The notes beneath the pieces were generated by a model, which did not search any database, had not been told where the DNA came from, and worked only from the letters and a program-made list of their open reading frames with translations. From Bacteroidia bacterium (lineage in GTDB: Bacteria > Bacteroidota > Ignavibacteria > UBA10030), in contig BQML01000029.1 of assembly GCA_022180565.1 (NCBI GenBank), forward strand, positions 18,174 to 82,173: a DNA stretch of 64,000 bases, given 5' to 3'. A program made the translations under genes and the position numbers. This document shows positions 10,977-63,825 of this stretch, piece by piece. The number at the start of each line of letters is the position of its first letter. Positions within the stretch are counted from its first letter, which is position 1.

Positions 10977-10977
10977 A

Positions 10978-11931: not shown

Positions 11932-12018
11932 TGCTTCAAATCCCGCTAAATCATTGACAATCCTGCAAGTTATCGTTACATTCCTTTCGCCCGGATCACG
12001 ATTTCTCTCACCCCTTAC

Positions 12019-14213: not shown

Positions 14214-14252
14214 GCACTATATTCTTCCCTCTAAACTGATTACATTCCTCCT

Positions 14253-15278: not shown

Positions 15279-15333
15279 GGAGACCGGTAGAGGTCCGGGA
15301 TCCCTTCGGCTTTCTCCCCGCCAGAATTGTCCT

Positions 15334-34717: not shown

Positions 34718-34723
34718 GGAGCG

Positions 34724-36115: not shown

Positions 36116-36124
36116 CCGGTCTGT

Positions 36125-36230
36125 CCCCCTCCGGAGAAATCCGAAATCTTCCTCGAAATGACGGGGAGAGACTTCGGATTTCTTCGCGTGGAGGGGGTGA
36201 GTGCCTTGGAATCCCTCCTTATTTTTTCTT
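36125..36230 (+). promoter_or_regulatory. Structured leader / terminator: long imperfect hairpin overlapping a GC hairpin plus T-tract
   Basis: CCCCCTCCGGAGAAATCCGAAATCT ... AGACTTCGGATTTCTTCGCGTGGAGGGGG forms a ~22-bp interrupted stem. Its 3' arm shares GGAGGG with a second hairpin, GGAGGG-17nt-CCCTCC, which is followed by TTATTTTTTC. Confidence 0.3.
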
Positions 36231-36267
36231 ACACTTCTTGAACCTCCTTCCATCGTATGGTGAGCCC

Positions 36268-45525: not shown

Positions 45526-47459
45526 GGCTGAAGCAACAGCATATCGCGATCGTCGTCGCCGTGTTTGTGTGCATCGTCTTTTCCGCTGCAACGGGATCGT
45601 TCGCCTACTTTTCGAACAAAGGGTTCGGTTTTCCCCTGGATGATCCATGGATCCATCTCCAGTTCGCGAAGAATCTCGCTGAGCACGGAAGCTTCTCGTA
45701 CTACAAAGATGAAATGCCGACATCGGGCTCGACGGCGCCTCTCTATACTCTCCTGGCGGCCGCAGGATTCCTGGTGACGCATCACGAGATGATCCTGAGT
45801 TATGTCCTCGGTGTACTGGCCTATATTGTCGCGATCGTGTATTTCTTCAAGCTCACGGAGCGCGTGTTCGACGGCGCAATTCTTCCCGCACTTGCAGGCA
45901 CGGTCCTGTTCGCCCTCGAGCCGCGTCTGCACTGGGCCGCGCTTTCCGGAATGGAAACAACGCTTTTCATCGCGCTCTTGCTTGCGGCCGTTCATTCCTA
46001 TCAGTCGCAAAAAGGCATCATGCTCGGCATTGTGAGCGGATTACTGCTCTGGACACGGCCCGAAGCAGTTATCCTCTACGCGGCGATGGCGGCAGATTGG
46101 GGATTCCGACGGTTAACCGTACCCGGAGCTGAACGGAAGGCCTTATGGTCACGGTCTCCCTGGCTGGTCCAGGCAGGGGCAATCGCCTGTGTGCTGGGCT
46201 TGGGATATGCCGGCTTCAACCTCTCTCTCTCGGGATCCATTCTTCCAAACACCTATGCCGCCAAACTTGCGTACTACAGCGGTACCGGGACAGATTTTCC
46301 TCGTGCTGTCTTTCACTGGCTTACCGGCAACCACATTGTTATTGTTTCTGTCCTTGCAGGCGGAGGAATTCTTCAGTCTCTTTTTCAAGCGGTTCGACGA
46401 CAACCGTCGGACACCGTCCTTCCCCTTCTGTTCACTGTTGGCCTCTTCACCTCATACTGGATGAAGCTCCCCTATTTGTATCAGAACGGACGTTACATGA
46501 TGCCGATTCTGCCGTTTGTCATCCTCCTCGGCCTGTCGGGTCTGCACTGGATGTCGACGCGAGCGGGAGAGAGATTTTCCCGTCTGTTGTCTGCGCGTAC
46601 GATCCGAGCTGTACAGATAACCTTGATGGCCTTTCTCATCATCCAGTTCGCTCTGGGCGTCTGGGACGGAAGAGTTCTCTATCAGGAATCATGCAAGTAC
46701 ATCTCTGATCGCCAGGTCCGCACAGCTTTGTGGATTCGCGATCACCTTCCGCAGGATGCCATTGTCGCAACCCACGACGTGGGGGCGCTTGCATATTATT
46801 CGGAGAGACGCATTGTGGATATGGTAGGATTGATCTCCCCCGAAATCATTGATCATCTTAAGAACCTTTCCGCCACAAAGGAGTTTCTCGTTCGACACAA
46901 TGTCACCCACCTGGCTGTTCTTCGAAACTGGTTTGAAGTTGTGAATGTGAATCCGATCTTCCAGACCAGGGAAGCAACGCCGGAGATTATGGAGGTGTTC
47001 AGGTTCGAGCCGGACAGCCTCCATTTTACCTCGCCTTTCGTCGCGTGGCTGACCTCTCGCGCATGGTCATATCTCTCACGCGGTGATGTGCGCGAGGGAA
47101 AACCTCTGGCAGAACGAGCCGTTCAGCTTGATTCCCTTTCTTCGCGGGCGCACCATCACCTTGGATGGGCTTTGATGATGGAGGGGGATTTGGACGGGGC
47201 GGAGCACGAATTTCACGCCGCACTTCGTCTTCATCCGGAATACTGGTCAGCCCATTTTGCCCTGACTCAGGTGCCTCTGCGAAGGGGCCAGCCGCTTGAG
47301 GCCGTTCGGCGCCTGAAACTCTTGCTCAAGGCGAATCCAAATATGCTTGCAGCCTATCAGGCGATTGCCCAGATTTACGGGCAGATGGGGGAAAACGAGA
47401 AGGCGGCGCAGGCGGCCCGTGAGTATCAGACGAGAATTGCCGCACAACAGAACGATTGA
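45522..47459 (+). CDS. GT-C-fold-like polytopic membrane protein (ArnT/PMT-like N-terminal region) with C-terminal TPR repeats
   Basis: 645 aa; about 11 TM helices with an Asp-rich first loop (PLDDPW); the C-terminal ~150 aa contain TPR-like repeats. Confidence 0.5.
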   Translation: MRLKQQHIAIVVAVFVCIVFSAATGSFAYFSNKGFGFPLDDPWIHLQFAKNLAEHGSFSYYKDEMPTSGSTAPLYTLLAAAGFLVTHHEMILSYVLGVLAYIVAIVYFFKLTERVFDGAILPALAGTVLFALEPRLHWAALSGMETTLFIALLLAAVHSYQSQKGIMLGIVSGLLLWTRPEAVILYAAMAADWGFRRLTVPGAERKALWSRSPWLVQAGAIACVLGLGYAGFNLSLSGSILPNTYAAKLAYYSGTGTDFPRAVFHWLTGNHIVIVSVLAGGGILQSLFQAVRRQPSDTVLPLLFTVGLFTSYWMKLPYLYQNGRYMMPILPFVILLGLSGLHWMSTRAGERFSRLLSARTIRAVQITLMAFLIIQFALGVWDGRVLYQESCKYISDRQVRTALWIRDHLPQDAIVATHDVGALAYYSERRIVDMVGLISPEIIDHLKNLSATKEFLVRHNVTHLAVLRNWFEVVNVNPIFQTREATPEIMEVFRFEPDSLHFTSPFVAWLTSRAWSYLSRGDVREGKPLAERAVQLDSLSSRAHHHLGWALMMEGDLDGAEHEFHAALRLHPEYWSAHFALTQVPLRRGQPLEAVRRLKLLLKANPNMLAAYQAIAQIYGQMGENEKAAQAAREYQTRIAAQQND

Positions 47460-47460
47460 A

Positions 47461-49338
47461 ATGATTCCGATGTTGAGGAACAACATGAAGAACGGCCGCT
47501 GGATCCTGATGATCGTTCTTGTGCTCGCCGTCCATCGCGTGCCTCTGATGGGACAGGAGCCCGAAGCGATCGTGAAATTGCGCCTGGCTCAGAGTTTCGA
47601 AAGGGCGGGCGACTGGGAACGCGCCGTGCCCATCTATGAATCACTTCTCCTGACCGATCCGCGAAACTACGTTTATTTTGAGGCACTTCGCCGTGGCTAC
47701 GTTCAGCTTCGGGAGTATGACAAGGCGGTTGAATTGATCGAATATCGCCTCACGTTGGAGCAAAACAACCCCCAACTGCTCGCCACGCTGGGGAGCGTGT
47801 ACTACCAAATGGGGAAAGAATCTACGGCTGATTCGCTCTGGCAGGCCGTGGTACGGCTTGATTCAAAGAACCCCTCCATGTACCGGCTGATCGCCGGTCA
47901 GATGCTGGAATTCCGTCTGTATGACCGGGCAATTGACCTGTTCACGCGGGCACGCAAGATCACGGGTGACCCACACCTGTTTCTCAGTGAACTCGCCAAC
48001 CTCTATGGAGCCTTTCAACAGTACGGCAGGGCGGCGGAGGAATTCGTGCAGTTGCTCGTGCTTCAACCCGCCCAGCTCTCCGACATACAGTCAAGGATAT
48101 CTGTGTTCTTCGGCCGGCCTGAAGCGATCACGGCAACACGAGAAGTCGTTGCGCGAGCACTCACCAAGCGCGAGGATTTCGTTCCTCTCCGACAGTTCTA
48201 TGCCTGGGTGTTGATGGAAGAGAAGCGGTACGACGCAGCGTTGGAACAGTACCGGATTATTGACAGGACAATGCGGGCGAGGGGAGCGCAGTTGTTCAAG
48301 TTTGCGGAGCGGGCCGCGGACGAGGGGGAGTATCGCATTGCAGCGTCTGCCTGCGATGAAGCGTTGAAAGCAGATCCCCCGACCGAACTTATCCCGCTCA
48401 TCCGTCTGAAGTATGCGCGTGCCATTGAAGAGTTGACGATCGACCAAGACACGACGGCGGCTCCTCCCGCACCGCGAAGGGCAATTCCGGAAAGCGCCCT
48501 CTCTTCCGGAACAGCCCTGAAGCTGTATGCTTCGGTTGCACAGGAGTACTCCGGCACGCGGCATGCAGCACAAGCATATTTTCGGATGGGGATTCTTCAG
48601 AGAGACCGTTTCCGTGATCTGGATGCAGCTTTGGCAGCTTTTAATGAGGCGGTTCGGGCCGGAGCGGGTCTCCCAGTCGCCGAGAAAGCCCTCCTGGAGA
48701 GGGCCGATGTTTTGGTGGCGAAGAATGATCTCGAAAAGGCACGCGAAACGTACACGTTATTGTCGTCATCTCGATCGGCCGACATGCGCGACCGCGCATT
48801 GTTTCATCTGGCGGAACTGGACTACTACACGGCGGAATTCGATTCCGCTCTGGCAGTGCTGGGCCGTCTGGCCGCCCAGCCGGCTACAGACCTGGCAAAC
48901 GATGCGCTGAGCCTGCGGTATTTTATTGAAGAGAATCACGGGCTGTTCACAGAAGCATTGAAGGCTTATGCTTCGGCGGACTTGCTCTGTCGACAGAAAA
49001 GAGACTCGGAGGCGCTTGAAGCCTTCCGGTCCATTCTGCGTCGGTTTCCAACCGCCCTCCTCGCGGACGATGCAGCGTTCACCGTGGGCGAACTCCTCGT
49101 TCGCCTGCGCCGGTACGACGACGCAGTGAAAGCCTTTCGGAGCATAGCCGACGATATGCCGTCAAGTATTCTGCGGGATCTGGCTTTGATGAGGATAGGT
49201 GAGGTTTACGAAAGGGAAATGCATGTTTCTCCCCTGGCCATTGAAACATATGAGGAACTCCTCAGATTGTTTCCGGGTTCCATCCACGCAGAAGAGGCGC
49301 GGAAACGTATCCGGCGACTCAGGGGGGATGTGTTATGA
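47461..49338 (+). CDS. Tetratricopeptide-repeat protein with N-terminal signal/anchor
   Basis: About 625 aa consisting almost entirely of TPR-like helical repeats; start at ATG 47461, overlapping the previous stop. Confidence 0.6.
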   Translation: MIPMLRNNMKNGRWILMIVLVLAVHRVPLMGQEPEAIVKLRLAQSFERAGDWERAVPIYESLLLTDPRNYVYFEALRRGYVQLREYDKAVELIEYRLTLEQNNPQLLATLGSVYYQMGKESTADSLWQAVVRLDSKNPSMYRLIAGQMLEFRLYDRAIDLFTRARKITGDPHLFLSELANLYGAFQQYGRAAEEFVQLLVLQPAQLSDIQSRISVFFGRPEAITATREVVARALTKREDFVPLRQFYAWVLMEEKRYDAALEQYRIIDRTMRARGAQLFKFAERAADEGEYRIAASACDEALKADPPTELIPLIRLKYARAIEELTIDQDTTAAPPAPRRAIPESALSSGTALKLYASVAQEYSGTRHAAQAYFRMGILQRDRFRDLDAALAAFNEAVRAGAGLPVAEKALLERADVLVAKNDLEKARETYTLLSSSRSADMRDRALFHLAELDYYTAEFDSALAVLGRLAAQPATDLANDALSLRYFIEENHGLFTEALKAYASADLLCRQKRDSEALEAFRSILRRFPTALLADDAAFTVGELLVRLRRYDDAVKAFRSIADDMPSSILRDLALMRIGEVYEREMHVSPLAIETYEELLRLFPGSIHAEEARKRIRRLRGDVL

Positions 49339-50609
49339 AGCGGATGATTTCGGGGATGATGCTTCTTCTCTGCATCGTGGTGACCGGCGCAAGGGCGCAG
49401 TCGAGGCTTCTCATCCCGATGGATGGGGTCCAGGGGAATCATCTGAAATCGTACGGCGTTGCCTTTTGGTTTCTGGAGCGCGGCGGTACTGTGGATTGGT
49501 TGCTGAATTATCGGGGGGGATCGTTTGTCATGGAGTACAGCGAAGTGCTCGCGCGGGAGTGCAGGATACGAGGGGTGCTTTTTGAAGCACTGGAGGGAGC
49601 GGCGGCGACACGGATCTATGCCGACGTGCAGAGGGAAGACAGCAACACCGATGTGGTCCGGCTGGAGAAGGCGCCCAGAATAGCCGTTTACGTTCCGCCG
49701 AACTTCAAACCGTGGGATGATGCCGTAACGCTCGCGCTGGAATACGCAGAGATTCCCTATACCAAAGTATGGGACGAGGACGTTCTTTCGGGAAAGATAA
49801 CGGAATACGATTGGCTCCATCTTCACCACGAGGACTTCACGGGGCAATACGGCAAATTCTATGCGAGTTACCGGAATGCCCAGTGGTACATTTCCCAACA
49901 ACTTCTGTACGAGCGGGAAGCTCACAGATTGGGATTCAAGAAGGTGTCTGAAGAGAAGAAAGCGGTTGCGCGGGCAATCAGGGATTACATAGGACAGGGG
50001 GGATTCATGTTTGCAATGTGTTCCGCGACGGACAGCTATGATGTCGCTCTTGCTGCGGAGGGGGTGGACATTTGTGACGTCATGTTCGATGGTGATCCGC
50101 CGGACAGGAACGCCCAGGAAGCTCTGGACTTCGGCAAGACTTTGGCGTTTGAGGGATTCACTCTCGATATGAATCCTTTGCGTTACGAGTATTCCGATAT
50201 CGATATTCCTTCGAGTGATCCGCCGCCCCTGCGGGATCCGAACACCGACTATTTTACTCTGTTCGAATTCTCTGCGAAGTATGATCCTGTACCGTCCATG
50301 TTGACACAGAACCATGTGAACATTGTGCGGGGTTTTATGGGCCAGACCACGGCGTTCCGAAAGAGCCTCATCAAACGAACGGTGGTGATCCTCGCAGAGA
50401 GGGAGGGAACGGAGGAAGTGAAATATCTGCACGGAAATTTCGGTCGGGGGACCTTTACGTGGTACGGAGGCCACGATCCCGAAGATTACCAGCATGCCGT
50501 CGGTGACCCGCCGACGGATCTGAATTTGTACAAAAACTCACCCGGGTACCGGCTGATCCTCAACAATATTCTCTTTCCCGCCGCAAAGAAGAAACAGCAG
50601 AAAACGTAG
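49335..50609 (+). CDS. Secreted hypothetical protein (possible class-I glutamine-amidotransferase-like fold with a Cys in a nucleophile-elbow-like context)
   Basis: Signal peptide; GGFMFAMCSAT resembles a nucleophile elbow; no confident family assignment. Confidence 0.45.
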   Translation: MKRMISGMMLLLCIVVTGARAQSRLLIPMDGVQGNHLKSYGVAFWFLERGGTVDWLLNYRGGSFVMEYSEVLARECRIRGVLFEALEGAAATRIYADVQREDSNTDVVRLEKAPRIAVYVPPNFKPWDDAVTLALEYAEIPYTKVWDEDVLSGKITEYDWLHLHHEDFTGQYGKFYASYRNAQWYISQQLLYEREAHRLGFKKVSEEKKAVARAIRDYIGQGGFMFAMCSATDSYDVALAAEGVDICDVMFDGDPPDRNAQEALDFGKTLAFEGFTLDMNPLRYEYSDIDIPSSDPPPLRDPNTDYFTLFEFSAKYDPVPSMLTQNHVNIVRGFMGQTTAFRKSLIKRTVVILAEREGTEEVKYLHGNFGRGTFTWYGGHDPEDYQHAVGDPPTDLNLYKNSPGYRLILNNILFPAAKKKQQKT

Positions 50610-50695: not shown

Positions 50696-51739
50696 CTACA
50701 ATCCGAGCTTGATGCCGAACACGTGATTATCGTCGAAGAACTCTGTGGCTTGGTAGCCATAGTCCACGGCGATGTTCATGGTCGGACTCAGATTAAACTT
50801 GACACCTGCGCCTACCGTGAACGTGTACATCGCTTCCTCCGTCGGTAGGTCCGGAGAGAGCGAATAACCGCCTCGCACGAACAGCGTGTTGTCGTACGAC
50901 CATTCTCCGCCGATTCTGAAATCATCGTAGGAAAAGTTGTTGTGGACGAAGGTTCCGGTAAGGACAAGACTCGATTGTGCCATCAGGGATATCTCATAGG
51001 ATGTCCCGAATTCGAGGGTTGACGGCAGGTCGAACTCCTGTGCGGTGATCCGCAAGGGCCGGGGCTGTGATCCCGGCTCGGTGCCGGGAATTTGTACGGT
51101 CTGTTCCAGGTCCGGTCCATCGAACCGCATGTTCGGCCCGAGGTTCTTCATGGCCACACCGAACTTGAACCCGCGCAAGCCCGTCTGATACTGCAGACCG
51201 AAATCAAATGCGATGCCCGTTGCGCTTTCTCTCATGATGGTTTCCGACACCACTTTGAGGTTGAGTCCAAAAGCAATACGGTCGGTCATCATTTTGGAAA
51301 AATTCAGCGCGAGCGTGATGTAGTTCGGCGAGTAGGTCTCACCTGTCCCGTCGGGATAGGCGGTCGTCGTAATGGGGATGTCTCCGAAGTTGAGCGTTTG
51401 AATGCTGAATCCCAACGTGCCGAATTCGCCCAGTCTTGCAGCGACCGCGGCATATTCAACGCTCACATCAGCCATATAGTTCATGTGCGTGAACATTGCC
51501 TCCGCAGAGCCCGGGAGAATGGCCACGCCGGCAGGATTCCAATACATAGCCTCCACGCCCTGGATTCCAGAGGTGTAGGAACCCGAGAGCCCGATGCCGC
51601 GGGCACCGAGCGGAATCAACAACTCCTGTGCACCCGAGGTCCCTTTCCGCCTTCCGGTTCCCGCCTCAACGACAGCCACACTGCCGGCCAGCACGCTGAG
51701 GAGGAGCGCCCAGACCGTTGTCCGAGAGATTGTTTTCAT
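50696..51739 (-). CDS. PorV/PorQ-like outer-membrane beta-barrel protein (T9SS-associated, FadL-like)
   Basis: Signal peptide; N-terminal ...ARGIGLSGSYTSGIQGVEAMYWNPAGVAIL resembles the PorV N-terminal motif (AR.GGMG...YWNPA); beta-strand-rich; C-terminal GIKLGL. Confidence 0.5.
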   Translation of the reverse strand: MKTISRTTVWALLLSVLAGSVAVVEAGTGRRKGTSGAQELLIPLGARGIGLSGSYTSGIQGVEAMYWNPAGVAILPGSAEAMFTHMNYMADVSVEYAAVAARLGEFGTLGFSIQTLNFGDIPITTTAYPDGTGETYSPNYITLALNFSKMMTDRIAFGLNLKVVSETIMRESATGIAFDFGLQYQTGLRGFKFGVAMKNLGPNMRFDGPDLEQTVQIPGTEPGSQPRPLRITAQEFDLPSTLEFGTSYEISLMAQSSLVLTGTFVHNNFSYDDFRIGGEWSYDNTLFVRGGYSLSPDLPTEEAMYTFTVGAGVKFNLSPTMNIAVDYGYQATEFFDDNHVFGIKLGL

Positions 51740-51819
51740 GATACACTCCTTAGGATTTTCTTTCGTGTCATGGCAAAACGTTCGAGAGGCCGGAGCCAGG
51801 AGCCTCCGGCCGCACGATC

Positions 51820-54800
51820 TTAAAGTCGATCCAACCGCTCCTCGGGCTGGATCACCCCGAGTTTCAGGATCTTGGTTCCGACATCTTTGATGTCTACTTC
51901 GATCAGGTACATGCCGCTGGCAACCGGAATGCCGTCTGTGTTGCGTAAGTCCCAGCGCTCGAAGGTCGAGCCGGGGGAGTGCTCGAGCTGACGCACAAGC
52001 ACACCGGAGACCGTAAAGATCCGAATGACCACCCTCCCTTGTTCCGGGAGGCGAGAGAACGTGACAAACCGATTCAGCGGATCGCGTTCGTTTACCTGAG
52101 CTCCGAAGTATGGATTCGGGAACACATTGATCTTCGCAACGTCGGACTTTGCCAGCTCTGGACTGACGGTAGGTTGGTAACCTGCTGTTGTGAATGTGAA
52201 CCGGTCGTTCTCAGTGTTCACAAAATTCGGGACAATCGTGAACACCTGGCCGTCTTGGGGATTGAACGGCATCGTTCCACGCTGCAGGGGCCACAGCGCG
52301 TATAACGTCGGCATGGTCGCAGCTCCCGAAAGGGCGTTCACACCCGTATAGAGGGCATCCGGCGTCGCAGTGTAATCCGTATTGAAGATGAACAGGTACT
52401 CCCGGTCTGCACTGCTTGCCGTGGGCTGCCAGAGATTATTGTTGGCCGCCGAGCCCGCTTGCTCAACATAACCGGCCGCCAACTGGCGTTCAGGATTGGA
52501 GGTGACATCCCAAACGGAGAAATGCTGAAGTTCGTAACTGACATATCCGTAACTGGGTGTTCCTCCGCGGAGGTACATGTACGCCCGCTGTCCGTCGGCA
52601 ACGTTGGTATGAAAGCGGATCTCCACGGTCACGTATTGAGCCGGTGTGATGCTGCTGCCGAAGAAGTTGACGCCAAGATCGAGTCCGCCGAAGAATTCGT
52701 GCCCTCCCCAGTTGACCCCGGTGAACCATCGGTCGCCGGCCGGCTCGAAGGACCACTCCTTGATAGCAAGCGGAGGACCGGCAACCTTCATCTGCAATCC
52801 GTCAACAAAAGGAGCCGTTCCATCCCCGGCCTGAGTCATGTTCACCAGTCTATTCGAGTTTGTTGTGAGGTCCTTCAGCGTCCATTTGTAGTCATCATCA
52901 ACCGCGCTGTAGGCAAAGGTGACTTCGTAGTCGTGTCCGGTCACTCTGGTCGGATCAACGACAATGGGTGTCACGGTACCGTCGCTCAATCCGGCGGCGT
53001 GAATCGCACGGATGGTGTCGCCCACCGCCGCGTTCCATCGTGTGCCCGGCGGAGGCGCGTGCGGACGAACGGTAATAATTGATCGGGAGCTCTCCAGCAT
53101 GTGAGGGACACCCCATTCGTTGTACGCGTAGGATGTTATGATGAAGTAATAGGGATTTCCGTTGACCAGCGGAAGTCCCGAGAGGGCATCCATTTTCGTG
53201 GAGTACTTCCTCTGTAACCCGGAGTTGGTTCCCTTAACAACAGTGACTTCGACATTCTCACCGTAGTTTGGGTCGTACTTGAAGTCCTTGATCGCCAGAA
53301 CCATGTTGTCCAGATCATACGTCGCCAACGTTCGATAGATCGTGGGAGCCGTCGGGTGATCAACCTGATAGACGACATAACCCTCAAAAACATACTGGGT
53401 CGTATTTCCAGATGTATCCTTTTTGATCAGGTCCTGAGCAACGTAACTCTCGGCGTTGTCTTCCCAGGCAAAGGATACTTCCCCGTCGAGCTCCGTCACC
53501 GTGACGTTCGGTGCCGGAGGAGACGGGGGCAGGGCGAAGTTAACGTCGTAAGCCGTCTGCGCCATGGCATCGATTTCCTTCAGCACGGCAACACTGTTCT
53601 TGTTATTTGCGCCGAGGGCAATCAACACACCGAACACAACTTCCTGAGTGTCACCTGGATTGAACGTAAACGGACCGGAAGACATCAAGAATCGCCTGTC
53701 GCCGGGTGAAAGAATCGTTGGATTGATTTCACTCCAACCTGATCCGGCGACCGGATCGCCCGGGAACACGAACCGTGTTGGTTGTGAAGTCATCGGATTG
53801 ATGAACGGAGAACCATCCTGATACCGCCCGGTCATGTAGTTGAAGGCCTCTTGAGCATTCTCAGGATCACGCCGGGGATAGGTTGCACCGTTGATATAGT
53901 AGGCAAACGAGTACATCGGCAGATTCTTGTAGCCCGGAATGCGGCGACCGGATACAAGGGCGGTGTCTCCAGGCGAAGGGACAATGGGACCCTGAAAGAA
54001 ATCACGACCAATGGCGGGAGGCTGTGTGCCGTAATACCCCACGTCATTGTTGTCCGCGTTCCAGCAGTACCCGAGACTCAGCGTCGTGTCACAGCCGACG
54101 TAATCGTCTCCCGCGTCGCCAAGATCCGGATCATCCCACAAAGCGATGAACGTGGAATCGATCGTCGCCGTGCCTTTGTGAATGATCTTGGCCTTGATGA
54201 ACATCATGTCGCCAAAGGCATCCGGCCGATCATATCCCCAAACCGTGAGCTGGACTTCGATCCCAAGGGGCTGGGTTCCGAAGATGTTCGCGTGGCGCGC
54301 TCCATCCATGTCGTTGAAGACACACCACATGGTCATATCGCCCATCAACAGTGGATTTCCGAGGGAATCTACAGGTGCGCCGTCGCCTACGGGCCAGTTC
54401 TGATAATCGTCGCCGGGCGTGATAAGGTCTGCCCGTGTGATCTTATACCACCGATAGTGGGGCTTTGTGGCGTCATCTGCCACGCCACCCACGATCTTGC
54501 CCGGGGTGAACTCCGAGGCATACTCCGCTGCCGCGGTCCTGAATTCGTTACCGACCTTGCCGGCTACCCAGACGCCTGCAGCATAATCAATGGTTTTGAA
54601 TGTGCCCTTGGGCCATTCCATGCCGGAATTTCCGGTCACAACCTGGGATACATATTGACCATCGTTACCCATGATCGCGTTGATGCGATTCCCGTCGAAG
54701 TTCTTGTATTCGAGAACGCCCGTTTTTTCAAGCCGCGTCACAGGCTTCTTGTCTTTTCGGTCGCCGCCGTCGGCGATTGTCAGACCAATCCCAAGGAACA

Positions 54801-54846
54801 GGATGACCGCCATCGCCAGCCGGCTTCGATTCAAGATTGTTTTCAT
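51820..54846 (-). CDS. Large secreted protein with T9SS type-A C-terminal sorting domain (function unknown)
   Basis: 1008 aa; signal peptide; C-terminal ~80 aa (INVFPNPYF...VIRIFTVSGVLVRQL...GMYLIEVDIKD...KLGVIQ) matches the Por secretion CTD. Confidence 0.75.
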   Translation of the reverse strand: MKTILNRSRLAMAVILFLGIGLTIADGGDRKDKKPVTRLEKTGVLEYKNFDGNRINAIMGNDGQYVSQVVTGNSGMEWPKGTFKTIDYAAGVWVAGKVGNEFRTAAAEYASEFTPGKIVGGVADDATKPHYRWYKITRADLITPGDDYQNWPVGDGAPVDSLGNPLLMGDMTMWCVFNDMDGARHANIFGTQPLGIEVQLTVWGYDRPDAFGDMMFIKAKIIHKGTATIDSTFIALWDDPDLGDAGDDYVGCDTTLSLGYCWNADNNDVGYYGTQPPAIGRDFFQGPIVPSPGDTALVSGRRIPGYKNLPMYSFAYYINGATYPRRDPENAQEAFNYMTGRYQDGSPFINPMTSQPTRFVFPGDPVAGSGWSEINPTILSPGDRRFLMSSGPFTFNPGDTQEVVFGVLIALGANNKNSVAVLKEIDAMAQTAYDVNFALPPSPPAPNVTVTELDGEVSFAWEDNAESYVAQDLIKKDTSGNTTQYVFEGYVVYQVDHPTAPTIYRTLATYDLDNMVLAIKDFKYDPNYGENVEVTVVKGTNSGLQRKYSTKMDALSGLPLVNGNPYYFIITSYAYNEWGVPHMLESSRSIITVRPHAPPPGTRWNAAVGDTIRAIHAAGLSDGTVTPIVVDPTRVTGHDYEVTFAYSAVDDDYKWTLKDLTTNSNRLVNMTQAGDGTAPFVDGLQMKVAGPPLAIKEWSFEPAGDRWFTGVNWGGHEFFGGLDLGVNFFGSSITPAQYVTVEIRFHTNVADGQRAYMYLRGGTPSYGYVSYELQHFSVWDVTSNPERQLAAGYVEQAGSAANNNLWQPTASSADREYLFIFNTDYTATPDALYTGVNALSGAATMPTLYALWPLQRGTMPFNPQDGQVFTIVPNFVNTENDRFTFTTAGYQPTVSPELAKSDVAKINVFPNPYFGAQVNERDPLNRFVTFSRLPEQGRVVIRIFTVSGVLVRQLEHSPGSTFERWDLRNTDGIPVASGMYLIEVDIKDVGTKILKLGVIQPEERLDRL

Positions 54847-54895
54847 TGTGAAATCTCCTCAGCGAATCAAGAAATTGACCATATTCAAAAGCCGG

Positions 54896-57727
54896 TTAAA
54901 AATCCACGCGCACTCCAAGACGCGTTTGACGCGGCGTTCCATAGTTGCCTGGGGCGGCAAGCCTGTACCGATATCCATCAACCGCCGCCTGACCGTTCTC
55001 CGCCGCATACGCCTGCCCGTCTGTCGTACGGAAATACCCGTCGTCGTTCGGTAGCCCCGTCTGGTTGTACACAAAGGTCACGTTCTTGGCATTCGTGACA
55101 TTGAGCATCCACAAATAAACATTGACCGTGGCTGGTCCCACCGAGAAGGTCTTATCGACCTTGAGGTCAAGTTGGAAGTTCCACGGTGAATATGTCTGAT
55201 TCATGGCCGCAACAGGTTGTTCCCATCCCGGTCCGAAGAGGACCGTGCTTGGGCGGGCCGGCGTGTATGGACGGCCACTGCCGAAGGTCAGCAACAGGTT
55301 GACGCCGACCTGCTCTAGGGGCTTCATGTCGTACAGGATGGGCCCGTCGCCGGCCTCGGTGCGGAAATCGACGTTCACGCTCCCCGTGTGCCGCTGATCG
55401 AAATCAAGGGGTGAGACAAAGGTCGGGAAGTTCGTGCCAAGCCATGCAATATTGAAATTTGTATTGGCTCCCGATCCGGTTCCGGATGCATATTGAAGCG
55501 TGTAATTCACCATCGCCGAAACACGGTTTGTTCGGCGCAAATTGAATGAGAAAGAAAGTCCCTTAACCGTCCCAAAATCACCGTTCGTATACTGGGCATA
55601 CGCAACCGGTTTCGCAAACACGTTGCGCAACTGGACCAGGTCACGGATGTCCTTGTAGTACGTCGTAATGTCGAGGCTGGCATTGGGGCCGATTTGCTGG
55701 CTAAAACCAACCTCATAGGTGATGGTTCTTTCCGGTTTCAGGCTTGGGTTACCCACCGTGACATAGTTTCCAGCAGTCAGCTCCTGGACCAGCCTCGTTG
55801 TGCTCGTGTACAGCCTGTTCAATTCGACATGCTGAATGAAATGGCCGTACTGAGCATGGAAGACGGTCTGGTCGGTGACAGGGAAGGAGAACCCGAGCCG
55901 GGGGCTGAAGGATGTCGTTGCTTCACCCGGTTCGAAGTTGTCCTCCGCGATCATCTGATAATTACCGGAGGGATGAGATACAATATGAATGTTGGTCGGG
56001 TCTTTGATCCTGTCCACATTCGCATTAATGTAATCCCATCGCAAACCGATGTTCAGAACGAGATCGGGAAGTTCCAGCTTATTCTGGGCATAGATGGCCG
56101 CGATGATCGGATGAGGCGCGCTGTTCCGGCTGCCGTCATCGAGGAAGGTCTTCTTGCCCTTTGCTACCCCATCCACCGTCAACCCGAGATTGGCTGTGTA
56201 CGAATTTCGAAGAAGCTCCTCGCGCGTGAAAGAAGGACTGGCGGCCTTTGCGAGCGCGAACCGCGCCGGAAGCGTGGACCAGTATCGAATTGTATTGTAC
56301 CGGTATTCGCCTCCGACCTTAAGCAGATTCGAACGATCGAGCTGATGGGTCAGATCAACCTTCACGCTCCAGTATGAGGAGCGGTTGTATTCGTACGCAA
56401 AATTGACGTACCCGGGACCCGCAAAGAGGTTTGCAAACCTGTTCGGAGGATTGCGGCCCGGCCCGCTGAGGACCGGGTTCTTCACGGGGTCCCCATACGA
56501 ATCAATGTCATCAAACCAGACCGGATCGCCCTGCTCATGCTCCGTTTGGAAAAAGCTCAGCATAACGGAATAGAAAGTCGAAGCTCCAAGCGTGTGAGTT
56601 CCTCTCAGATAATATGCATGAGTTGAGCGCTCGCGTTTCAGGTTCCGTTCGGAATTGAACACCGAATGATACTGATTGGGAATCCGGTCGTTGGTGAAGC
56701 TTGTGAAGCCCCCGAGGCGGAGATTGAACGGCTTGATGTCCCAAATCAGATTCGAATTGAGTGTCAAGATCTTCGAGGTGTTATTCGGAAGATAGAATTT
56801 GCGCCCGACACTTGGATTCCCGTCGAGGGCATACGTGTATTCCGTCCCCACATGAAAACGAAGAGCAGATCCGACGCCGGGAAAGGGCCCGCCGGCTGAC
56901 AAATGGAAGGTGGATGTTCCATAGGAGCGGAATCCGTGAGGAGCCTGCAAACCGTCGCGGACAAACTGAAGCGAATCCTTAGGAGCCGCACGCTTGTAGA
57001 ACATCTCATCGGAAATCACACCGACCGAGAATGTGTAGCGCTCGGTGCCGCCCTTGGTCGTCGCGCTGACAAGCCCGGCATTCGCGAACCCATACTCAGC
57101 ACTGAATCCCCCCGCCTGATACGTGACCTCTTCTATGGATTCATTGACCACAGCCCCTGCATTGGTGCTGTTGTACGGATTGTTGACGATCATGCCATCG
57201 ATGAAATAGGCAACTTCATCCGAACGGCCTCCGCGCACGTAGAGATTGTTCCCAAGCTTGACGATGCCGGGCTGGAGGGCGACAACGTCAAGGTATCCGC
57301 GGGTGGGGATGTTCTTGATTTCCTCCGAGCGGATCGTCATGATCGCATTCGTCGCGCTCTTGCTGACAAGAGGACGCTCGGCCACGATCTCGACTTCAGG
57401 CACGGCAATCGCTTCGCTCGAGAGTTCTGCATTGACCTCGGTTGTCAATTCCGACGTGACAATGACGTTGGAGACCGTCAGAGTTTGATAACCGATGTAG
57501 CTGAACCGGAGGGTGTAACTTCCAGGACGAACATCCAGAATGTAGTAATTGCCCTCAATGTCCGTGGCGGAACCTTGTGTTGAGCCCGCGATGATCACGT
57601 TGGCGCCAATGAGGGGTTCTCCCGACTGGGAGTCCGTGACCTTGCCGGCGATCTTTCCCGGGCCTTGCGCAACGAGCAGGGAGGAGGAGATGAAGACAAG
57701 GCACAAAACTGAAAGGAAATATTTCAT
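54896..57727 (-). CDS. TonB-dependent receptor with N-terminal carboxypeptidase-regulatory-like domain
   Basis: Signal peptide MKYFLSVLCLVFISSSLLVAQG; CarbopepD_reg-like (KIAGKVTD...GANVII...TDIEGNYYI); plug region; long beta-barrel; C-terminal ...RLGVRVDF. Start at ATG 57727 rather than the tracked 57811. Confidence 0.85.
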   Translation of the reverse strand: MKYFLSVLCLVFISSSLLVAQGPGKIAGKVTDSQSGEPLIGANVIIAGSTQGSATDIEGNYYILDVRPGSYTLRFSYIGYQTLTVSNVIVTSELTTEVNAELSSEAIAVPEVEIVAERPLVSKSATNAIMTIRSEEIKNIPTRGYLDVVALQPGIVKLGNNLYVRGGRSDEVAYFIDGMIVNNPYNSTNAGAVVNESIEEVTYQAGGFSAEYGFANAGLVSATTKGGTERYTFSVGVISDEMFYKRAAPKDSLQFVRDGLQAPHGFRSYGTSTFHLSAGGPFPGVGSALRFHVGTEYTYALDGNPSVGRKFYLPNNTSKILTLNSNLIWDIKPFNLRLGGFTSFTNDRIPNQYHSVFNSERNLKRERSTHAYYLRGTHTLGASTFYSVMLSFFQTEHEQGDPVWFDDIDSYGDPVKNPVLSGPGRNPPNRFANLFAGPGYVNFAYEYNRSSYWSVKVDLTHQLDRSNLLKVGGEYRYNTIRYWSTLPARFALAKAASPSFTREELLRNSYTANLGLTVDGVAKGKKTFLDDGSRNSAPHPIIAAIYAQNKLELPDLVLNIGLRWDYINANVDRIKDPTNIHIVSHPSGNYQMIAEDNFEPGEATTSFSPRLGFSFPVTDQTVFHAQYGHFIQHVELNRLYTSTTRLVQELTAGNYVTVGNPSLKPERTITYEVGFSQQIGPNASLDITTYYKDIRDLVQLRNVFAKPVAYAQYTNGDFGTVKGLSFSFNLRRTNRVSAMVNYTLQYASGTGSGANTNFNIAWLGTNFPTFVSPLDFDQRHTGSVNVDFRTEAGDGPILYDMKPLEQVGVNLLLTFGSGRPYTPARPSTVLFGPGWEQPVAAMNQTYSPWNFQLDLKVDKTFSVGPATVNVYLWMLNVTNAKNVTFVYNQTGLPNDDGYFRTTDGQAYAAENGQAAVDGYRYRLAAPGNYGTPRQTRLGVRVDF

Positions 57728-58244
57728 GACAAAATCCTTTCTTCTGAGTTGAACAACAAACCTGTCTGTGATGAAACCATGGCTCATCGGTAGAGGGAGT
57801 GTCGTGGGCAATCAGGAATGAATCTGAAAACCTCGACGAACCACCATGTGTCGTGCGGGTCAAACTCCACAAAAATTGTGCCTTTGAGGGATAAGTGATT
57901 TCGCCGGTGAAAGCGCAATCTCTCTTTAGGTTGCGCGATCATTTTTCTTGTTTCAGGAATCCGAAAGCCAAAAGGAAGATCCTCCAGGGAAAATGAAAAT
58001 GCCGCCCGCGGTGTGACAAGGGAACATCATCAAGTGATGAACGGCGGAGGGACTACTCAAGAGAGACCACAGTGTAGAGAAAATGGTCAACCATGAGATC
58101 CAGGATGATGAAAAAATCTACCTTCCTGATCTTGCAAATGCGCGGGATAAGCTGTTCTCAAAAGACGGAAAGCCACGAGCTTTACTTTTCACGAACTAAT
58201 CTGTATTCTGAACCGGATTTGAACAAATTCTCGGAGAAGAATGT

Positions 58245-59606
58245 ATGAAAAGCTGGCCCCTGGCGTTCTTGATTCCCCTCTTTGTCCTTTCGGCCCAGGA
58301 CAGCGGTTTGACGGTACCCTACGAAATGTTCAGGCTGAACAATGGGCTGACGGTTATTCTGCATGAGGACCATACAGTTCCCCGCGTAGCCGTCAACATG
58401 TGGTACCATGTCGGATCGGGACATGAAAAGCCCGGACGGACAGGTTTTGCCCATCTGTTTGAACATATCATGTTTGAAGGATCGGCCAATGTGCCTGAAG
58501 GCATGTTCGACGTGTGGCTCGAAGCGGCGGGAGGAGACAACAACGGATCAACCACGACAGACCGCACGAACTACTATGAGAACCTTCCGAGCAACGCGCT
58601 CGAACTGGCCCTGTTTCTTGAATCCGACCGGATGGGCTATCTGCTCGACGCCATGTCTCCGGCAAAGGTGGATGGACAGAGAGATGTCGTCAAGAACGAA
58701 CGGCGCCAGCGTTACGAAAATCAGCCCTACGGCATGGTATGGATCGTCATGGCAAGATCTCTGTATCCTGAGAACCACCCCTATTCATGGCCGACGATCG
58801 GATCCATGGAAGATCTCTCGGCGGCAAGCTACGAAGATGTGGTTGAGTTCTTCAAGAAGTATTATGTTCCAAACAACGCCAGTCTTGTCGTGGCGGGAGA
58901 TATTGATCCGAAAACAACCCGGGCCCTGGTGGAAAAATGGTTTAACGAGATACCTCGGGGAAAGCCGACCGAACCACTTGATCCCCCCGCGACATTTCTC
59001 GCATCGGAGAAACGCTTGCTCATGGAGGATCGCGTCCAGCTTCCGCGGCTCACGATGGCATGGCTGACGCCGCCGGCGTACCATCCCGGGGATGCGGAAA
59101 TGGACCTTGCGGCTCATATCCTCGCCGGTGGAAAAAATTCCCGGTTGTACAAGCGCCTCGTTTACGACATGCAGATTGCGCAGGACGTATCGGCCTTTCA
59201 GTGGTCCGCAGCTCTCGCATCGTCTTTCTGGATCGTCGCAACCGCGCGTGAAGGACATACCCTGGCAGAAATCGAGGCGGTGATTCAGGAGGAAATCGAC
59301 AAGCTAAAGACGGAACAACCCGCAACCCGGGAACTTCAGAGGGCGGTGAACCAGTTTGAGGCGGGGTTTCTTGACGGTCTTGAGACTTCGTCGAGAAAGG
59401 CGGATCAACTGAACGCGTACTATGTCCGAACCGGAAATCCGGATTACTTCAACGAAGATCTGGCTCGCTATAAAGCCGTTGCCCCGCCCGATATTCGGGC
59501 AATGATTCAAACCTATCTACGGGATGAAGCGCGTGTGGTGCTGAGCATTGTTCCGACGGGTAAGAAGGAGCTTGCGGCCGCAAAAAGCACGGAGATAAAA
59601 CCATGA
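58245..59606 (+). CDS. M16-family zinc peptidase, catalytic subunit (HxxEH), paralog of 33362..34717
   Basis: Signal peptide; HLFEHIMFEGS; same architecture as the first pair. Confidence 0.85.
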   Translation: MKSWPLAFLIPLFVLSAQDSGLTVPYEMFRLNNGLTVILHEDHTVPRVAVNMWYHVGSGHEKPGRTGFAHLFEHIMFEGSANVPEGMFDVWLEAAGGDNNGSTTTDRTNYYENLPSNALELALFLESDRMGYLLDAMSPAKVDGQRDVVKNERRQRYENQPYGMVWIVMARSLYPENHPYSWPTIGSMEDLSAASYEDVVEFFKKYYVPNNASLVVAGDIDPKTTRALVEKWFNEIPRGKPTEPLDPPATFLASEKRLLMEDRVQLPRLTMAWLTPPAYHPGDAEMDLAAHILAGGKNSRLYKRLVYDMQIAQDVSAFQWSAALASSFWIVATAREGHTLAEIEAVIQEEIDKLKTEQPATRELQRAVNQFEAGFLDGLETSSRKADQLNAYYVRTGNPDYFNEDLARYKAVAPPDIRAMIQTYLRDEARVVLSIVPTGKKELAAAKSTEIKP

Positions 59607-61048
59607 GAAAGAAACTGACGCTTGCGATCATCACCAGCTTTGTTCTGGGCTCTCCGGCAACCGGCCAAGTTCCCGACCGCAGTTCACCGCCGGCTCTGGC
59701 AGCCCCGCGGCCCCTCCAACTGCCTGCCATCCAACGGTTCAGGCTTTCCAATGGACTCCCCGTCGTGTTCATGGAAAAACGCGGGGTGCCGATCATTCAG
59801 GTTAACCTGATGATCAAAACCGGTTCCGCCATGGATCCTCCGAATCAGAATGGCCTGGCAAGCCTTACGGCGGCCATGCTGGATGAGGGCGCCGGCGCCC
59901 TTTCAGCCCTCGAATTGGCAGATGCGATCGATTTCCTGGGTGCCCGAATCTCTACGGGAGCAGGAGCGCATACCAGTTCTGTCGCGCTTCACACGCCGGT
60001 TTCGAAACTGGCAGAGGCGCTTGCGCTCATGGCAGACATTGCCGTGAGACCCCGGTTTGCAGTTGAGGAACTGGAAAGGCTTCGAAAGGAACGTCTGACC
60101 TTACTGCTTCAATGGCATGATCAGCCTTCAACAATTGCTTCAATCACCTTCAGCCGAAAGCTGTTCGGTCCGAGGCACCCGTATGGAATTCCGAGTATCG
60201 GGAATGAGCAATCGCTAAGGGCCATGAAGGTGGCGGATTTAAAGAGGTTCCATGAAACGTATTACCATCCCAACAATGCCGCGCTGATCGTCGTGGGGGA
60301 AATCGGCCGTCGCGAGCTTGAGAAGCAGCTGGAGGCGGTGTTCGGATCCTGGAAGGGGCGGACAACGGCCACCGTCAACTGGCCCGATGCGGCGCAGGTA
60401 GAACAAAGGACTGTGTATATCGTGGACAAGCCCGGCGCCGCACAGTCGGAGATCCGCATGGGACGGATCGGGGTCGCCAGAACAACGAAGGACTATTTTC
60501 CGCTGGTGGTGATGAACACCATGCTGGGAGGATCCTTTACGTCGAGGCTCAATCAGAATCTTCGGGAAACGCACGGCTATTCCTATGGAGCCGGTTCGTT
60601 CTTTGATATGCGACCGCTTCCCGGGCCATTTATGGCCTCCTCAGCCGTTCACACCGCCGTGACAGACAGTGCCTTGGCCGAATTCTTTAAGGAATTCAAA
60701 GGCATTCTCAAGCCAATCCCGGAGGACGAGTTTGAAAAGGCCAAGAACTATCTTGCCCTCGGCTATGCGGACAATTTCGAATCGGTGGGTCAAATCGCCG
60801 GGATGCTTGCCGACATGATTCTCTACGGCCTCCCCGACGATTACTTCAACACGTATGTGAAAAACGTCCTCGCGGTGAAAAAAGAAGATGTTGAGAGAGT
60901 GGCGCGGGAATATATTGTCCCCGGAAAAATGTTGGTGGTTGTGGTGGGAGACAAAGCCGTTGTGGAGCGGGGAATCAGAAATCTCAATCTTGGAAGGGTG
61001 GAAGTACTGAGCGTTGAGGATGTACTCGGGAAGAAACCCAAGCTGTAG
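59603..61048 (+). CDS. M16-family peptidase, non-catalytic partner subunit, paralog of 34724..36115
   Basis: Signal peptide; no HxxEH; overlaps the upstream stop (ATGA). Confidence 0.8.
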   Translation: MRKKLTLAIITSFVLGSPATGQVPDRSSPPALAAPRPLQLPAIQRFRLSNGLPVVFMEKRGVPIIQVNLMIKTGSAMDPPNQNGLASLTAAMLDEGAGALSALELADAIDFLGARISTGAGAHTSSVALHTPVSKLAEALALMADIAVRPRFAVEELERLRKERLTLLLQWHDQPSTIASITFSRKLFGPRHPYGIPSIGNEQSLRAMKVADLKRFHETYYHPNNAALIVVGEIGRRELEKQLEAVFGSWKGRTTATVNWPDAAQVEQRTVYIVDKPGAAQSEIRMGRIGVARTTKDYFPLVVMNTMLGGSFTSRLNQNLRETHGYSYGAGSFFDMRPLPGPFMASSAVHTAVTDSALAEFFKEFKGILKPIPEDEFEKAKNYLALGYADNFESVGQIAGMLADMILYGLPDDYFNTYVKNVLAVKKEDVERVAREYIVPGKMLVVVVGDKAVVERGIRNLNLGRVEVLSVEDVLGKKPKL

Positions 61049-62238: not shown

Positions 62239-62445
62239 GGATACAGCCTTTCTCAGAGTAGAAATCACAAAAATCTCATCAAGATAATGAAGATTGTGTG
62301 AAAATGCGTTAAGAATTCGGGTTTTTTGCAGATCTTAGGAACGTGACACACGTCAAGTAAGCAAGTTGTGGCCCATCTTTTTTGCGATTATATTGCTCAC
62401 ACTCAAACAGCAATATCCTCCCACAACAAAAAGGATCCCATTTGT

Positions 62446-63825
62446 ATGAACAGATACCTGAGTACCGTCGTCGCTTTCTTTTTGGTTCTTGGTACGGTTG
62501 TTTCCCAGGAAAAGCCCAAGGCAGTGAGCGGCGGTCTTGGCCGCACAGCTGCTCTGGGCGGGAATCCAACCAATCCGTATATTCAGGATTTCACAGATGT
62601 TTTTGTGAATCCCGCATATGCGGCCTGGAACAAGGACCTCCTCTTCGGTGAGCTTGGCAACAGTTTTGGAAACCAGTACTTCGCGCCCGGGCAATATGCG
62701 GCGTACACATTGGGTCTCGGGAACCTGGCAGTCGGCGTTGCGATTGGCAAGCGGGAAGGGCCTATGTTCGCTGAGAATTCGTACGGCGCAGGACTGTTTG
62801 CCAATTCCGATTACATGATCCCTTCCATTAATGGGTATGCCGGATTCGGGACGGGCGAGCCTCAGGCCCCGTTTCATGTTTTTGCCGCGTACCGGGCCGG
62901 TTTTCTGACTATTGGTGGCGCACTCTACCGGTCGTCATGGAGTTACACCGACGACGGCACGGGAACTGTGGGAGCCATGCAAAAATTTGAGGTCTCGAAC
63001 AATCAGACGGGATTCAAGGCCGGGATGTTGCTGGAATTGAGTTCGAGTTTCCTTGTGGATGCCGGTGTCCTCTTTCGGCTGAATTCTTCTACGGCGGATT
63101 TTTCAGATGCCAATCCCGGAGCCAATCCGACGGCGGCTTCCTACGATGCCACAGGGACTGAAATCGGCGTCAACGGCCGCGCTTTCATGAAATTTTCGGA
63201 CAAACTCACCCTTGTACCCCAGGTGCGGTTTGCGACATTCGGCTATGAGCCCGAAATCGCCGACAATTCGACACCGGCTCCTCCATCGCCGGTATTGACC
63301 AAACCCAATGACTTCGGGCGCACGGAGTTCGAGGTTGGAGTGGGCGTGAATTCAACTTTTGAAGGCGGATGGGTGTCGGTAGGTGCAGCGGTCCAGAGCA
63401 TTTCGTTGACGAATGATGTCACGACTCAGCCGGGAGGCCCGGGGAATCCCTTGCAGACGACAAAGAACAAGATGAGCTGGTTCGATTTGCCGAAGCTGAA
63501 TGTCGGAGCCGAGTTTGAACTGCTCTCCTGGCTCTATGGCCGTCTGGGGTATTTCAAGCGGATTTCCTCGGTAACCACGACCTCAGAGCCGCCGGCGCCC
63601 GGCCAGAAATCGGAAAACACGATTTCCTCGGAGCCGGGGTATATCCCTTCCCTCGGCTTCACACCGGCTCAGCAACAGGTTTCTCTCGGTCTCGGTATCC
63701 TTGTGAACCGAATTTCGATTGACGGATATGTGGGAGAGCGGGTACTGGCGTCCGGGACGTGGCTCCTGAGCGGCCGGTTGCAGGACATTTTCGGGGTTTT
63801 GTCGATCAGCGTTAAATTCGACTGA
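62446..63825 (+). CDS. Hypothetical outer-membrane protein
   Basis: Signal peptide MNRYLSTVVAFFLVLGTVVSQ; beta-rich Gly/aromatic composition; ends ...LSISVKFD; followed by a strong terminator. Confidence 0.5.
   Translation: MNRYLSTVVAFFLVLGTVVSQEKPKAVSGGLGRTAALGGNPTNPYIQDFTDVFVNPAYAAWNKDLLFGELGNSFGNQYFAPGQYAAYTLGLGNLAVGVAIGKREGPMFAENSYGAGLFANSDYMIPSINGYAGFGTGEPQAPFHVFAAYRAGFLTIGGALYRSSWSYTDDGTGTVGAMQKFEVSNNQTGFKAGMLLELSSSFLVDAGVLFRLNSSTADFSDANPGANPTAASYDATGTEIGVNGRAFMKFSDKLTLVPQVRFATFGYEPEIADNSTPAPPSPVLTKPNDFGRTEFEVGVGVNSTFEGGWVSVGAAVQSISLTNDVTTQPGGPGNPLQTTKNKMSWFDLPKLNVGAEFELLSWLYGRLGYFKRISSVTTTSEPPAPGQKSENTISSEPGYIPSLGFTPAQQQVSLGLGILVNRISIDGYVGERVLASGTWLLSGRLQDIFGVLSISVKFD

Follow-up and report, generated by a model that had tools for sequence, protein, structure and literature searches.

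A conserved gene triad of FCB bacteria that may link type IX secretion to TonB-dependent uptake

The 64,000-nt stretch of contig BQML01000029.1 analyzed here (the window), from a bacterium of the Ignavibacteria, carries on its minus strand three neighboring genes that encode a TonB-dependent receptor, a 1008-aa secreted protein ending in a C-terminal domain (CTD) related to those of type IX secretion system (T9SS) cargo, and a 347-aa outer-membrane barrel. The same three genes recur in the same order in many phyla of the Fibrobacteres-Chlorobi-Bacteroidetes (FCB) group, and the triad can be duplicated. We propose that they form a conserved outer-membrane module in which a T9SS cargo, sitting on its own PorQ-like barrel, feeds the receptor with a probable glycan; we give this reading roughly even odds (about 0.5). 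The three genes are the following.

54896..57727, minus strand: TonB-dependent receptor gene, 943 aa, stop included; predicted signal-peptide cleavage ...LVA/QG
51820..54846, minus strand: cargo protein gene, 1008 aa, stop included; type-I signal peptide at residues 1-25, no lipobox cysteine
50696..51739, minus strand: PorV/PorQ-family outer-membrane barrel gene, 347 aa, stop included

All three open reading frames (ORFs) were checked by translation and lie where the first-pass annotation of this DNA had placed them, on the minus strand at 50696-51739 (347 aa), 51820-54846 (1008 aa) and 54896-57727 (943 aa). They are closely spaced, as it had also claimed, with 49 bp between the receptor gene and that of the 1008-aa protein and 80 bp between the latter and the barrel gene, and each is preceded by a Shine-Dalgarno site (AAGGA before the receptor, GAGGAG before the cargo gene, AAGGAG before the barrel gene). 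The receptor ORF can be extended to a TTG at 57811, but we prefer the ATG at 57727, because the AAGGA site and the start context are conserved in the two closest genomes (L001 and L002). The triad is flanked upstream by a 517-bp divergent intergenic region and downstream by a convergent 424-aa ORF that ends 86 bp away. The gaps, the ribosome sites and the directions of the flanking genes suggest an operon-like, self-contained three-gene transcription unit.

Conservation of this arrangement was followed in a scan of one genome per species. The cargo gene was found in at least 579 species, and the triad statistics refer to the best 80 loci out of these. Receptor, cargo and barrel genes occur in the same order and on the same strand in 62 of the 80, with ORF-based median gaps of 17-20 bp, and the colinear triads are spread over Ignavibacteria, Kryptonia, KSB1, Zixibacteria, Latescibacteria, Eisenbacteria and Marinimicrobia; most loci without a full triad are cut by contig ends. 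For the cargo protein itself, more than 2000 homologues were found (40-50% identity), almost all of them without Pfam annotation, in Kryptonia, KSB1, Calditrichota, Ignavibacteria, Marinimicrobia and unclassified metagenome-assembled genomes (MAGs) of the Bacteroidota lineage; one of the loci (L069) belongs to an uncultured Melioribacter sp. Clustering of all flank ORFs in the 80 loci gave no further conserved neighbor, just lineage-specific extras: a DUF4397 protein upstream of the receptor in 16 loci and a GWxTD protein downstream in 13. In 8 loci, two genes recognized by eye, without a scan, follow the triad; we take them to encode an LpxL-like acyltransferase and a GT9 heptosyltransferase (lipid A/lipopolysaccharide (LPS)). 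One Ignavibacteria/Bacteroidota-lineage group shows the triad followed by GWxTD and lipid A/GT9-like genes (L006, L009, L010, L012, L042, L068 and L080, at ~12300-15800).

With the full triad colinear in 62 of the 80 related loci, the adjacency of the three genes goes far beyond chance, and the earlier view that they are a module, as opposed to chance neighbors, is borne out across many FCB phyla. That the three genes merely lie side by side and have unrelated roles is contradicted by this synteny, since colinear triads from many phyla persist while all other neighbors vary, and we consider the probability of such a coincidence negligible.

The triad also duplicates. In one locus (L071) it is followed by a second receptor and cargo pair, and in another (L075) one triad directly follows another; the later of the two has a diverged CTD protein of 791 aa, and its barrel passes the Pfam PorV model. 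The layout of receptor, CTD protein and PorV-like barrel may therefore be wider than one cargo family. This second triad, in a Marinimicrobia MAG, lies at 8084-14445; its receptor has a carboxypeptidase-regulatory-like N-terminal extension (NTE) and a plug, and the 791-aa protein resembles the cargo only at the level of the CTD. Tandem cargo paralogues occur in L004, L023 and L062. Marinimicrobia loci possess extra canonical CTD proteins, one of them with a CBM56 module, as well as extra receptors, and these extended loci look like larger polysaccharide-utilization-type clusters without SusD. Extra T9SS-CTD proteins and plug-bearing receptors are seen downstream in L037 (10573-15257) and also in L029, L038, L067 and L077.

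The receptor is the most constant partner of the cargo, being directly upstream of it in nearly all loci and co-duplicated with it, and this is hard to explain without functional coupling of the two. The point bears on the possibility that the cargo is an adhesin or surface-layer component displayed on the small barrel, with the receptor tied to it by co-regulation or shared assembly alone. An Fn3/Ig-like stalk with a distal domain, the architecture described below, is typical of adhesins, and one relative is fused to a cohesin module; the constancy of the receptor nonetheless makes this explanation very unlikely.

The receptor has the following parts, where the NTE is the carboxypeptidase-regulatory-like domain.

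57392..57652, minus strand: NTE, residues 26-112; PF13715 75.8 bits, PF13620 65.4 bits
57371..57397, minus strand: TonB-box-like motif EVEIVAERP, residues 111-119, between NTE and plug
57074..57358, minus strand: plug domain, residues 124-218; PF07715 32.0 bits against a cut-off of 23.9
54899..57022, minus strand: beta-barrel region, residues 236-943, with C-terminal Phe; PF00593 84.8 bits (residues 436-861), OMP_b-brl_4, OMP_b-brl_3

All Pfam matches of the receptor exceed their cut-offs (CarbopepD_reg_2 75.8, Plug 32.0 and TonB_dep_Rec_b-barrel 84.8 bits, the last against 27), and the combination of NTE, plug and barrel upholds its earlier description as a CarbopepD_reg-type TonB-dependent receptor. 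The TonB-box-like segment has the consensus 'v.v.AerPl' across 55 aligned triad receptors and is so labeled by its position and motif only; the C-terminus is conserved within the triad receptor family. Matches to solved structures are limited to the NTE common to SusC-type receptors; by sequence, the NTE finds in the PDB the isolated N-terminal domains of the SusC-type receptors 6ytc and 9hfj, and RagA (6sli). Assignment of the receptor to SusC/RagA was rejected, since its TIGR04056 score of 87 bits, with the best match confined to the NTE, falls short of the cut-off (368). No SusD-like gene is present in the triad unit and none is conserved among the related loci, in keeping with the first-pass claim that a SusD-like partner is missing. 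The predicted mature receptor starts with Gln (window 57640-57727, LVA/QG), which is not the case for the cargo or the barrel. Such a Gln start is in line with the 'Q-rule' for Bacteroidetes signal peptidase I substrates (PMC5837995).

The cargo protein can be divided as follows.

53527..54714, minus strand: N-terminal beta-supersandwich, residues 45-440; best conserved part, with a DxDxDG-like acidic cluster
52162..53514, minus strand: Ig/Fn3-like beta domains, residues 445-895, from secondary structure of the model and Foldseek matches to tandem Fn3 arrays
51823..52149, minus strand: T9SS type-A-like CTD, residues 900-1008; motifs FPNPY, RLP, IRIFTVSG.LV, WDLRN..G.PVASGMY and KILKLGV
51823..51852, minus strand: family-specific tail IQPEERLDRL, residues 999-1008; predicted short helix past the canonical CTD end

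No Pfam or NCBIfam family scores above cut-off in the cargo, weak matches being confined to the CTD region, and a profile search of the PDB by sequence returned a marginal match to the PorZ CTD only. An AlphaFold2 model built on 26 homologues (predicted local distance difference test score (pLDDT) 84.7, predicted template modelling score (pTM) 0.67) is all-beta. Its N-domain is a predicted supersandwich of about 400 residues that resembles the carbohydrate-binding N-domains of GH15, GH65 and GH94 enzymes. Column identity reaches 0.6-0.7 in the N-domain and CTD, and is lowest in the middle (0.36-0.54). Family scans and model support the view that this would be a secreted, non-lipoprotein, all-beta protein of surface type without a recognizable catalytic domain, in agreement with the first-pass remark that no catalytic motif could be made out. 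Fold prediction over 51820..54846 thus yielded a glycan-binding-type supersandwich, at the level of the fold, but no glycoside-hydrolase catalytic domain.

A search with the N-domain alone against 1.84 billion representative proteins gave 6568 clusters, 2067 of them at E<=1e-30, and the domain nearly always begins close to residue 45 in a protein some 1000 aa long. Rare exceptions are fused to CBM9, CBM20, ConA-like lectin, BNR/sortilin, FG-GAP or cohesin modules; of the five such fusion proteins that were scanned, four have a canonical Por_Secre_tail. These fusions, along with the expansion reminiscent of polysaccharide-utilization loci (PULs), favor an extracellular, glycan-related role for a probably T9SS-exported protein. 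We infer substrate uptake and a glycan ligand because of the supersandwich fold, the CBM9, CBM20 and ConA-like fusions and the PUL-like duplication of the module.

The N-domain might instead be catalytic, making the cargo a surface enzyme (a glycan hydrolase, lyase or epimerase-like protein) whose products the receptor imports while the barrel only anchors it. Many polar residues of the N-domain are indeed invariant (N178, H185, E197, K224, D239, D241, D248, D253, D364, D383, R385 and Q401). The acidic cluster (W237, D239, D241, G243, D248, D253), however, resembles a site for calcium more than it does a catalytic pair, and sequence comparison with Pfam, NCBIfam and the PDB gave no match to an enzyme family. 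In the GH15, GH65 and GH94 enzymes to which its best-scoring fold matches belong, the supersandwich is a non-catalytic N-domain, separate from the (alpha/alpha)6 catalytic domain. An (alpha/alpha)6 or equivalent catalytic domain is absent from the model of the cargo, and its identification as a GH15/GH65/GH94/GH116-type enzyme was rejected for this reason. We consider a catalytic supersandwich unlikely.

The first-pass annotation had called the CTD of the cargo canonical, which stands for its type-A homology and not for its score. Against TIGR04183 the window CTD reaches 15.7 bits and misses the cut-off of 23, so that this model did not provide the confirmation looked for, and PF18962 was not reported; the PorZ model (NF052228) scores 27 bits, with a cut-off of 260, and its match covers no more than the last 80 residues. 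Among the relatives, TIGR04183 is matched at E<=0.01 in 20 of 26 and the PorZ C-terminus in 25 of 26, and some are annotated at NCBI as T9SS type-A sorting-domain proteins or bear PF18962. Alignment of the C-terminal block of the cargo family to the canonical Por_Secre_tail with hhalign gave 95.8% probability (E=7e-9), and the best Foldseek match of the whole cargo model is PorZ (5m11). In the model the CTD is a seven-strand beta-sandwich with the usual type-A motifs, but with an insert after PNPY and a 10-residue tail. Canonical type-A CTDs stop directly after the last strand, whereas the 'PEERLD' tail of the cargo runs past that point; within it E1003 and L1005 are nearly invariant across the family, and residues 1002-1007 form a helix in the model. 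Homology of the window CTD to type-A CTDs thus appears well supported at the family level, though the domain is divergent.

The third gene product matches the NCBIfam PorV/PorQ family NF033709 over its full length (residues 34-345) with 179.3 bits against a cut-off of 90, and matches Flavobacterium johnsoniae PorV (6h3i_F) by sequence at E=4e-8. It falls below every equivalog cut-off (PorQ 87/220, PorV2 73/325, PorV 62/250, BamG 23/250), which excluded it as an orthologue of PorV, PorQ or PorV2. Because it passes the family model and fails the equivalogs, we see it as a paralogous branch of its own within the PorV/PorQ family, slightly closer to PorQ. The comparison of PorV with PorP/SprF for 50696..51739 came out clearly: no PorP/SprF model appears among the NCBIfam matches at E<=0.1, and with NF033709 passed, both PorP/SprF and an unrelated porin were set aside. 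Of the earlier description as a PorV/FadL-like barrel, the PorV/PorQ family membership holds and PorV orthology does not. As it is a separate paralogue with a higher score to PorQ (87) than to PorV (62), a dedicated anchor, on the pattern of PorQ for PorZ, is also a better analogy than the general PorV-like shuttle first suggested.

The likeness to PorQ and PorZ raises another explanation. In the late stage of secretion in Porphyromonas gingivalis, PorZ, a CTD protein whose CTD is retained, delivers anionic LPS and is held by the barrel PorQ. The triad could be an envelope or T9SS accessory system, the FCB counterpart of PorF, PorZ and PorQ, handling a glycan- or LPS-linked molecule for surface attachment. 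The very high conservation of the cargo across phyla is the main point in favor of such a functional analogy; the best equivalog score of the barrel is that for PorQ, the CTD best resembles the PorZ C-terminus, a carbohydrate-binding-type fold would suit an LPS glycan, and presumed lipid A/LPS genes (LpxL-like and GT9, by eye) follow the triad in 8 loci. PorF is itself receptor-like with a plug, and the porF mutant resembles porQ and porZ mutants (PMC12704123). Using PorF sequences from the supplement of PMC7323717 for BLASTP and hidden Markov model (HMM) searches, we found that NTE and plug are common to PorF (PG0534) and the window receptor (255 residues, E=2e-14). The BLASTP alignment is restricted to residues 4-248 (25% identity) and the barrels do not align, on which ground the receptor was rejected as a PorF orthologue. 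The PorF HMM likewise matches NTE and plug only, at 50-72 bits, and non-triad receptors in the same loci score equally. The equivalog cut-offs are far off (PorQ 87/220; PorZ 27/260, CTD only), and PorZ is made of beta-propellers whereas the cargo has a supersandwich. Orthology of the receptor with PorF is therefore unsupported, given the NTE/plug-only alignment, the failed PorQ and PorZ equivalogs and the different passenger fold. In addition, the triad duplicates and diversifies in the manner of a nutrient locus, and the porF, porZ and porQ genes are presumably not adjacent in P. gingivalis, to judge from the locus tags PG0534, PG1604 and PG0602. A role of this kind strikes us as rather improbable.

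For the uptake module that we favor, the following route can be proposed. Judging by their signal peptides, receptor, cargo and barrel would all be Sec substrates at the inner membrane. The receptor and the small PorV/PorQ-family barrel would insert in the outer membrane, and the 1008-aa protein would be exported via the T9SS by means of its type-A-like CTD. It would bypass the general PorV/PorU attachment route and be received and held, without a covalent bond, by the product of the neighboring gene, its dedicated barrel, a specificity that the family-specific C-terminal tail may confer. The Ig/Fn3-like middle would serve as a stalk, and the N-terminal supersandwich would bind, and possibly process, an extracellular ligand, most likely a glycan. 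The ligand would then pass from the cargo to the receptor and be imported with TonB energy, such that a T9SS protein and its barrel would stand in for the SusD-type lipoprotein in phyla without SusD.

Parts of this arrangement have precedents. PorZ retains its CTD, and the PorQ-PorZ sub-complex forms independently of PorU and PorV (PMC10947112); PorP binds type-B cargo (PMC12704123); and in the Bacteroidota barrel-assembly machinery (BAM), BamA has a FadL/PorV-like barrel docked at its side, on which extracellular proteins find a platform (PMC12578637). Tentatively, one might go further and picture a stable three-protein machine in which the cargo keeps its CTD, with CTD and tail plugged in the PorQ-like barrel beside the receptor and the supersandwich capping the receptor. 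Were this so, the triad would be a new class of TonB-dependent transporter complex, a SusD-independent counterpart of the utilisome across SusD-less FCB phyla and the first T9SS-dependent transporter assembly; we hold this extended version to be possible, although doubtful.

Several observations weigh against the uptake module. The resemblance of the N-domain to glycan-binding supersandwiches is at the fold level only (5-12% identity), and the fold is known in non-glycan proteins too, for example in the P1 domain of YidC and in amine oxidases. A cargo identity of 40-50% across phyla is unusually high for a nutrient binder and would also fit a housekeeping role in the envelope. The CTD, with its sub-cut-off score and atypical tail, could be impaired in T9SS recognition rather than specialized for it, and no T9SS core gene was seen within the 64-kb window. 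Partial correlations of pairwise distances between domains, computed to look for co-evolution, showed no clear CTD-barrel signal; the values are weak (0.22 for CTD and barrel, 0.34 for CTD and NTE/plug) and mostly reflect common phylogeny and the unequal region lengths. Lastly, upstream of the receptor there is no Rfam family match or riboswitch, and no regulator that points to a substrate. The T9SS has been reported across the FCB superphylum (PMC11205867).

The triad can be compared with several known systems. As in SusC/SusD pairs, a TonB-dependent transporter with the same NTE has a surface partner, here probably glycan-binding, and the loci duplicate and diversify; unlike these pairs, the triad has no SusD, its partner is a T9SS-type CTD protein and not a lipoprotein, and a PorV/PorQ-family barrel is encoded by a third gene. 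With PorQ-PorZ and PorV-PorU of the P. gingivalis attachment complex it shares the combination of a PorV/PorQ-family barrel and a CTD protein, the known CTDs being uncleaved and barrel-held (PMC10947112). It differs from PorQ-PorZ in the lack of orthology, in its supersandwich and Ig-like passenger, in its linkage to a TonB receptor and in its occurrence outside the class Bacteroidia. The principle proposed for the triad, that a dedicated, co-encoded barrel receives and anchors one T9SS cargo, is that of SprF-SprB and PorP-PG1035, but the triad barrel is of another family and the CTD is type-A-like, not type-B. PorF (PG0534) resembles the receptor in its carboxypeptidase-regulatory-like domain and plug and is tied to late T9SS steps (PMC12704123), although its barrel does not align and its HMM cannot tell triad receptors from other receptors in the loci. 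Finally, BamA-BamG-BamH has a 14-stranded FadL/PorV-like barrel beside a larger barrel as a platform for an extracellular protein (PMC12578637), which is a structural precedent for the arrangement that we propose for the triad; the triad barrel scores 23/250 against the BamG model, the BAM partners are lipoproteins, and the function of BAM is barrel assembly.

The non-coding sequence around the triad has three features of possible regulatory interest.

57728..58244, no strand: divergent intergenic region, 517 bp; presumed promoter and regulatory region of the receptor
51788..51811, minus strand: hairpin in the cargo-barrel gap, read from the sequence; 8-bp GC stem GGCCGGAG / CTCCGGCC with an 8-nt loop
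50635..50674, no strand: hairpin in the convergent gap, read from the sequence; 10-bp GC stem AAAGGGCCGG ... CCGGCCCTTT

The divergent region shares a few short patches with L001 and L002, for example GTTCATCAC, GTCACA and ATTCCTG, which could be regulator sites. The hairpin between cargo and barrel genes is not followed by a T run and is possibly an attenuator or an RNA-stability element. That in the convergent gap is likely to be a shared terminator, stronger for the plus-strand neighbor. Generic promoter and terminator scans gave counts that were not above shuffled expectation.

Elsewhere, the window contains an S46 dipeptidyl-peptidase gene and, in two separate pairs, genes for M16 (insulinase-type) peptidases (33362-38427 and 58245-61048), which suggests a protein-degrading lifestyle. 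The M16 pair at 58245-61048 is divergent from the receptor and syntenic only in the two closest genomes, and was for this reason rejected as a part of the system; these two genomes and the window are also the only ones to have the 424-aa neighbor. The latter, at 49335-50609, is convergent on the triad and has no family match. On the plus strand, 44221-49338 encodes a GT87-type membrane glycosyltransferase followed by two large TPR proteins. Large ORFs without Pfam match are found at 22762-24684, 40532-42376 and 62368-63825 (640, 614 and 485 aa), the last with a weak PopA porin-like match of 28.6 bits against a cut-off of 150.

Literature searches on the triad, on PorV-like barrels with TonB and on T9SS in the carrier phyla found no description of the triad or of the cargo family. 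Each component is of a known kind. What seems to be new is their conserved combination, together with the unannotated supersandwich family and the pairing of a type-A-like cargo with a dedicated PorV/PorQ barrel. The picture of TonB-dependent uptake that involves surface partners comes mainly from the SusCD systems of Bacteroidia, and sediments, hot springs and oceans abound in Ignavibacteria, Kryptonia, KSB1, Zixibacteria, Latescibacteria, Eisenbacteria and Marinimicrobia. The triad bears on how FCB phyla other than Bacteroidia feed their receptors, and points to an undescribed route of capture and import. Its signature supersandwich domain, with about 6500 protein clusters, has neither a Pfam family nor a solved relative, and thousands of 'hypothetical proteins' in environmental genomes could be better annotated. 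If our reading is true, the triad would link T9SS protein secretion directly to nutrient import, would include a PorV/PorQ-type barrel as the first dedicated anchor of a type-A-like cargo, and would offer a concrete complex for structural work in cultured carriers.

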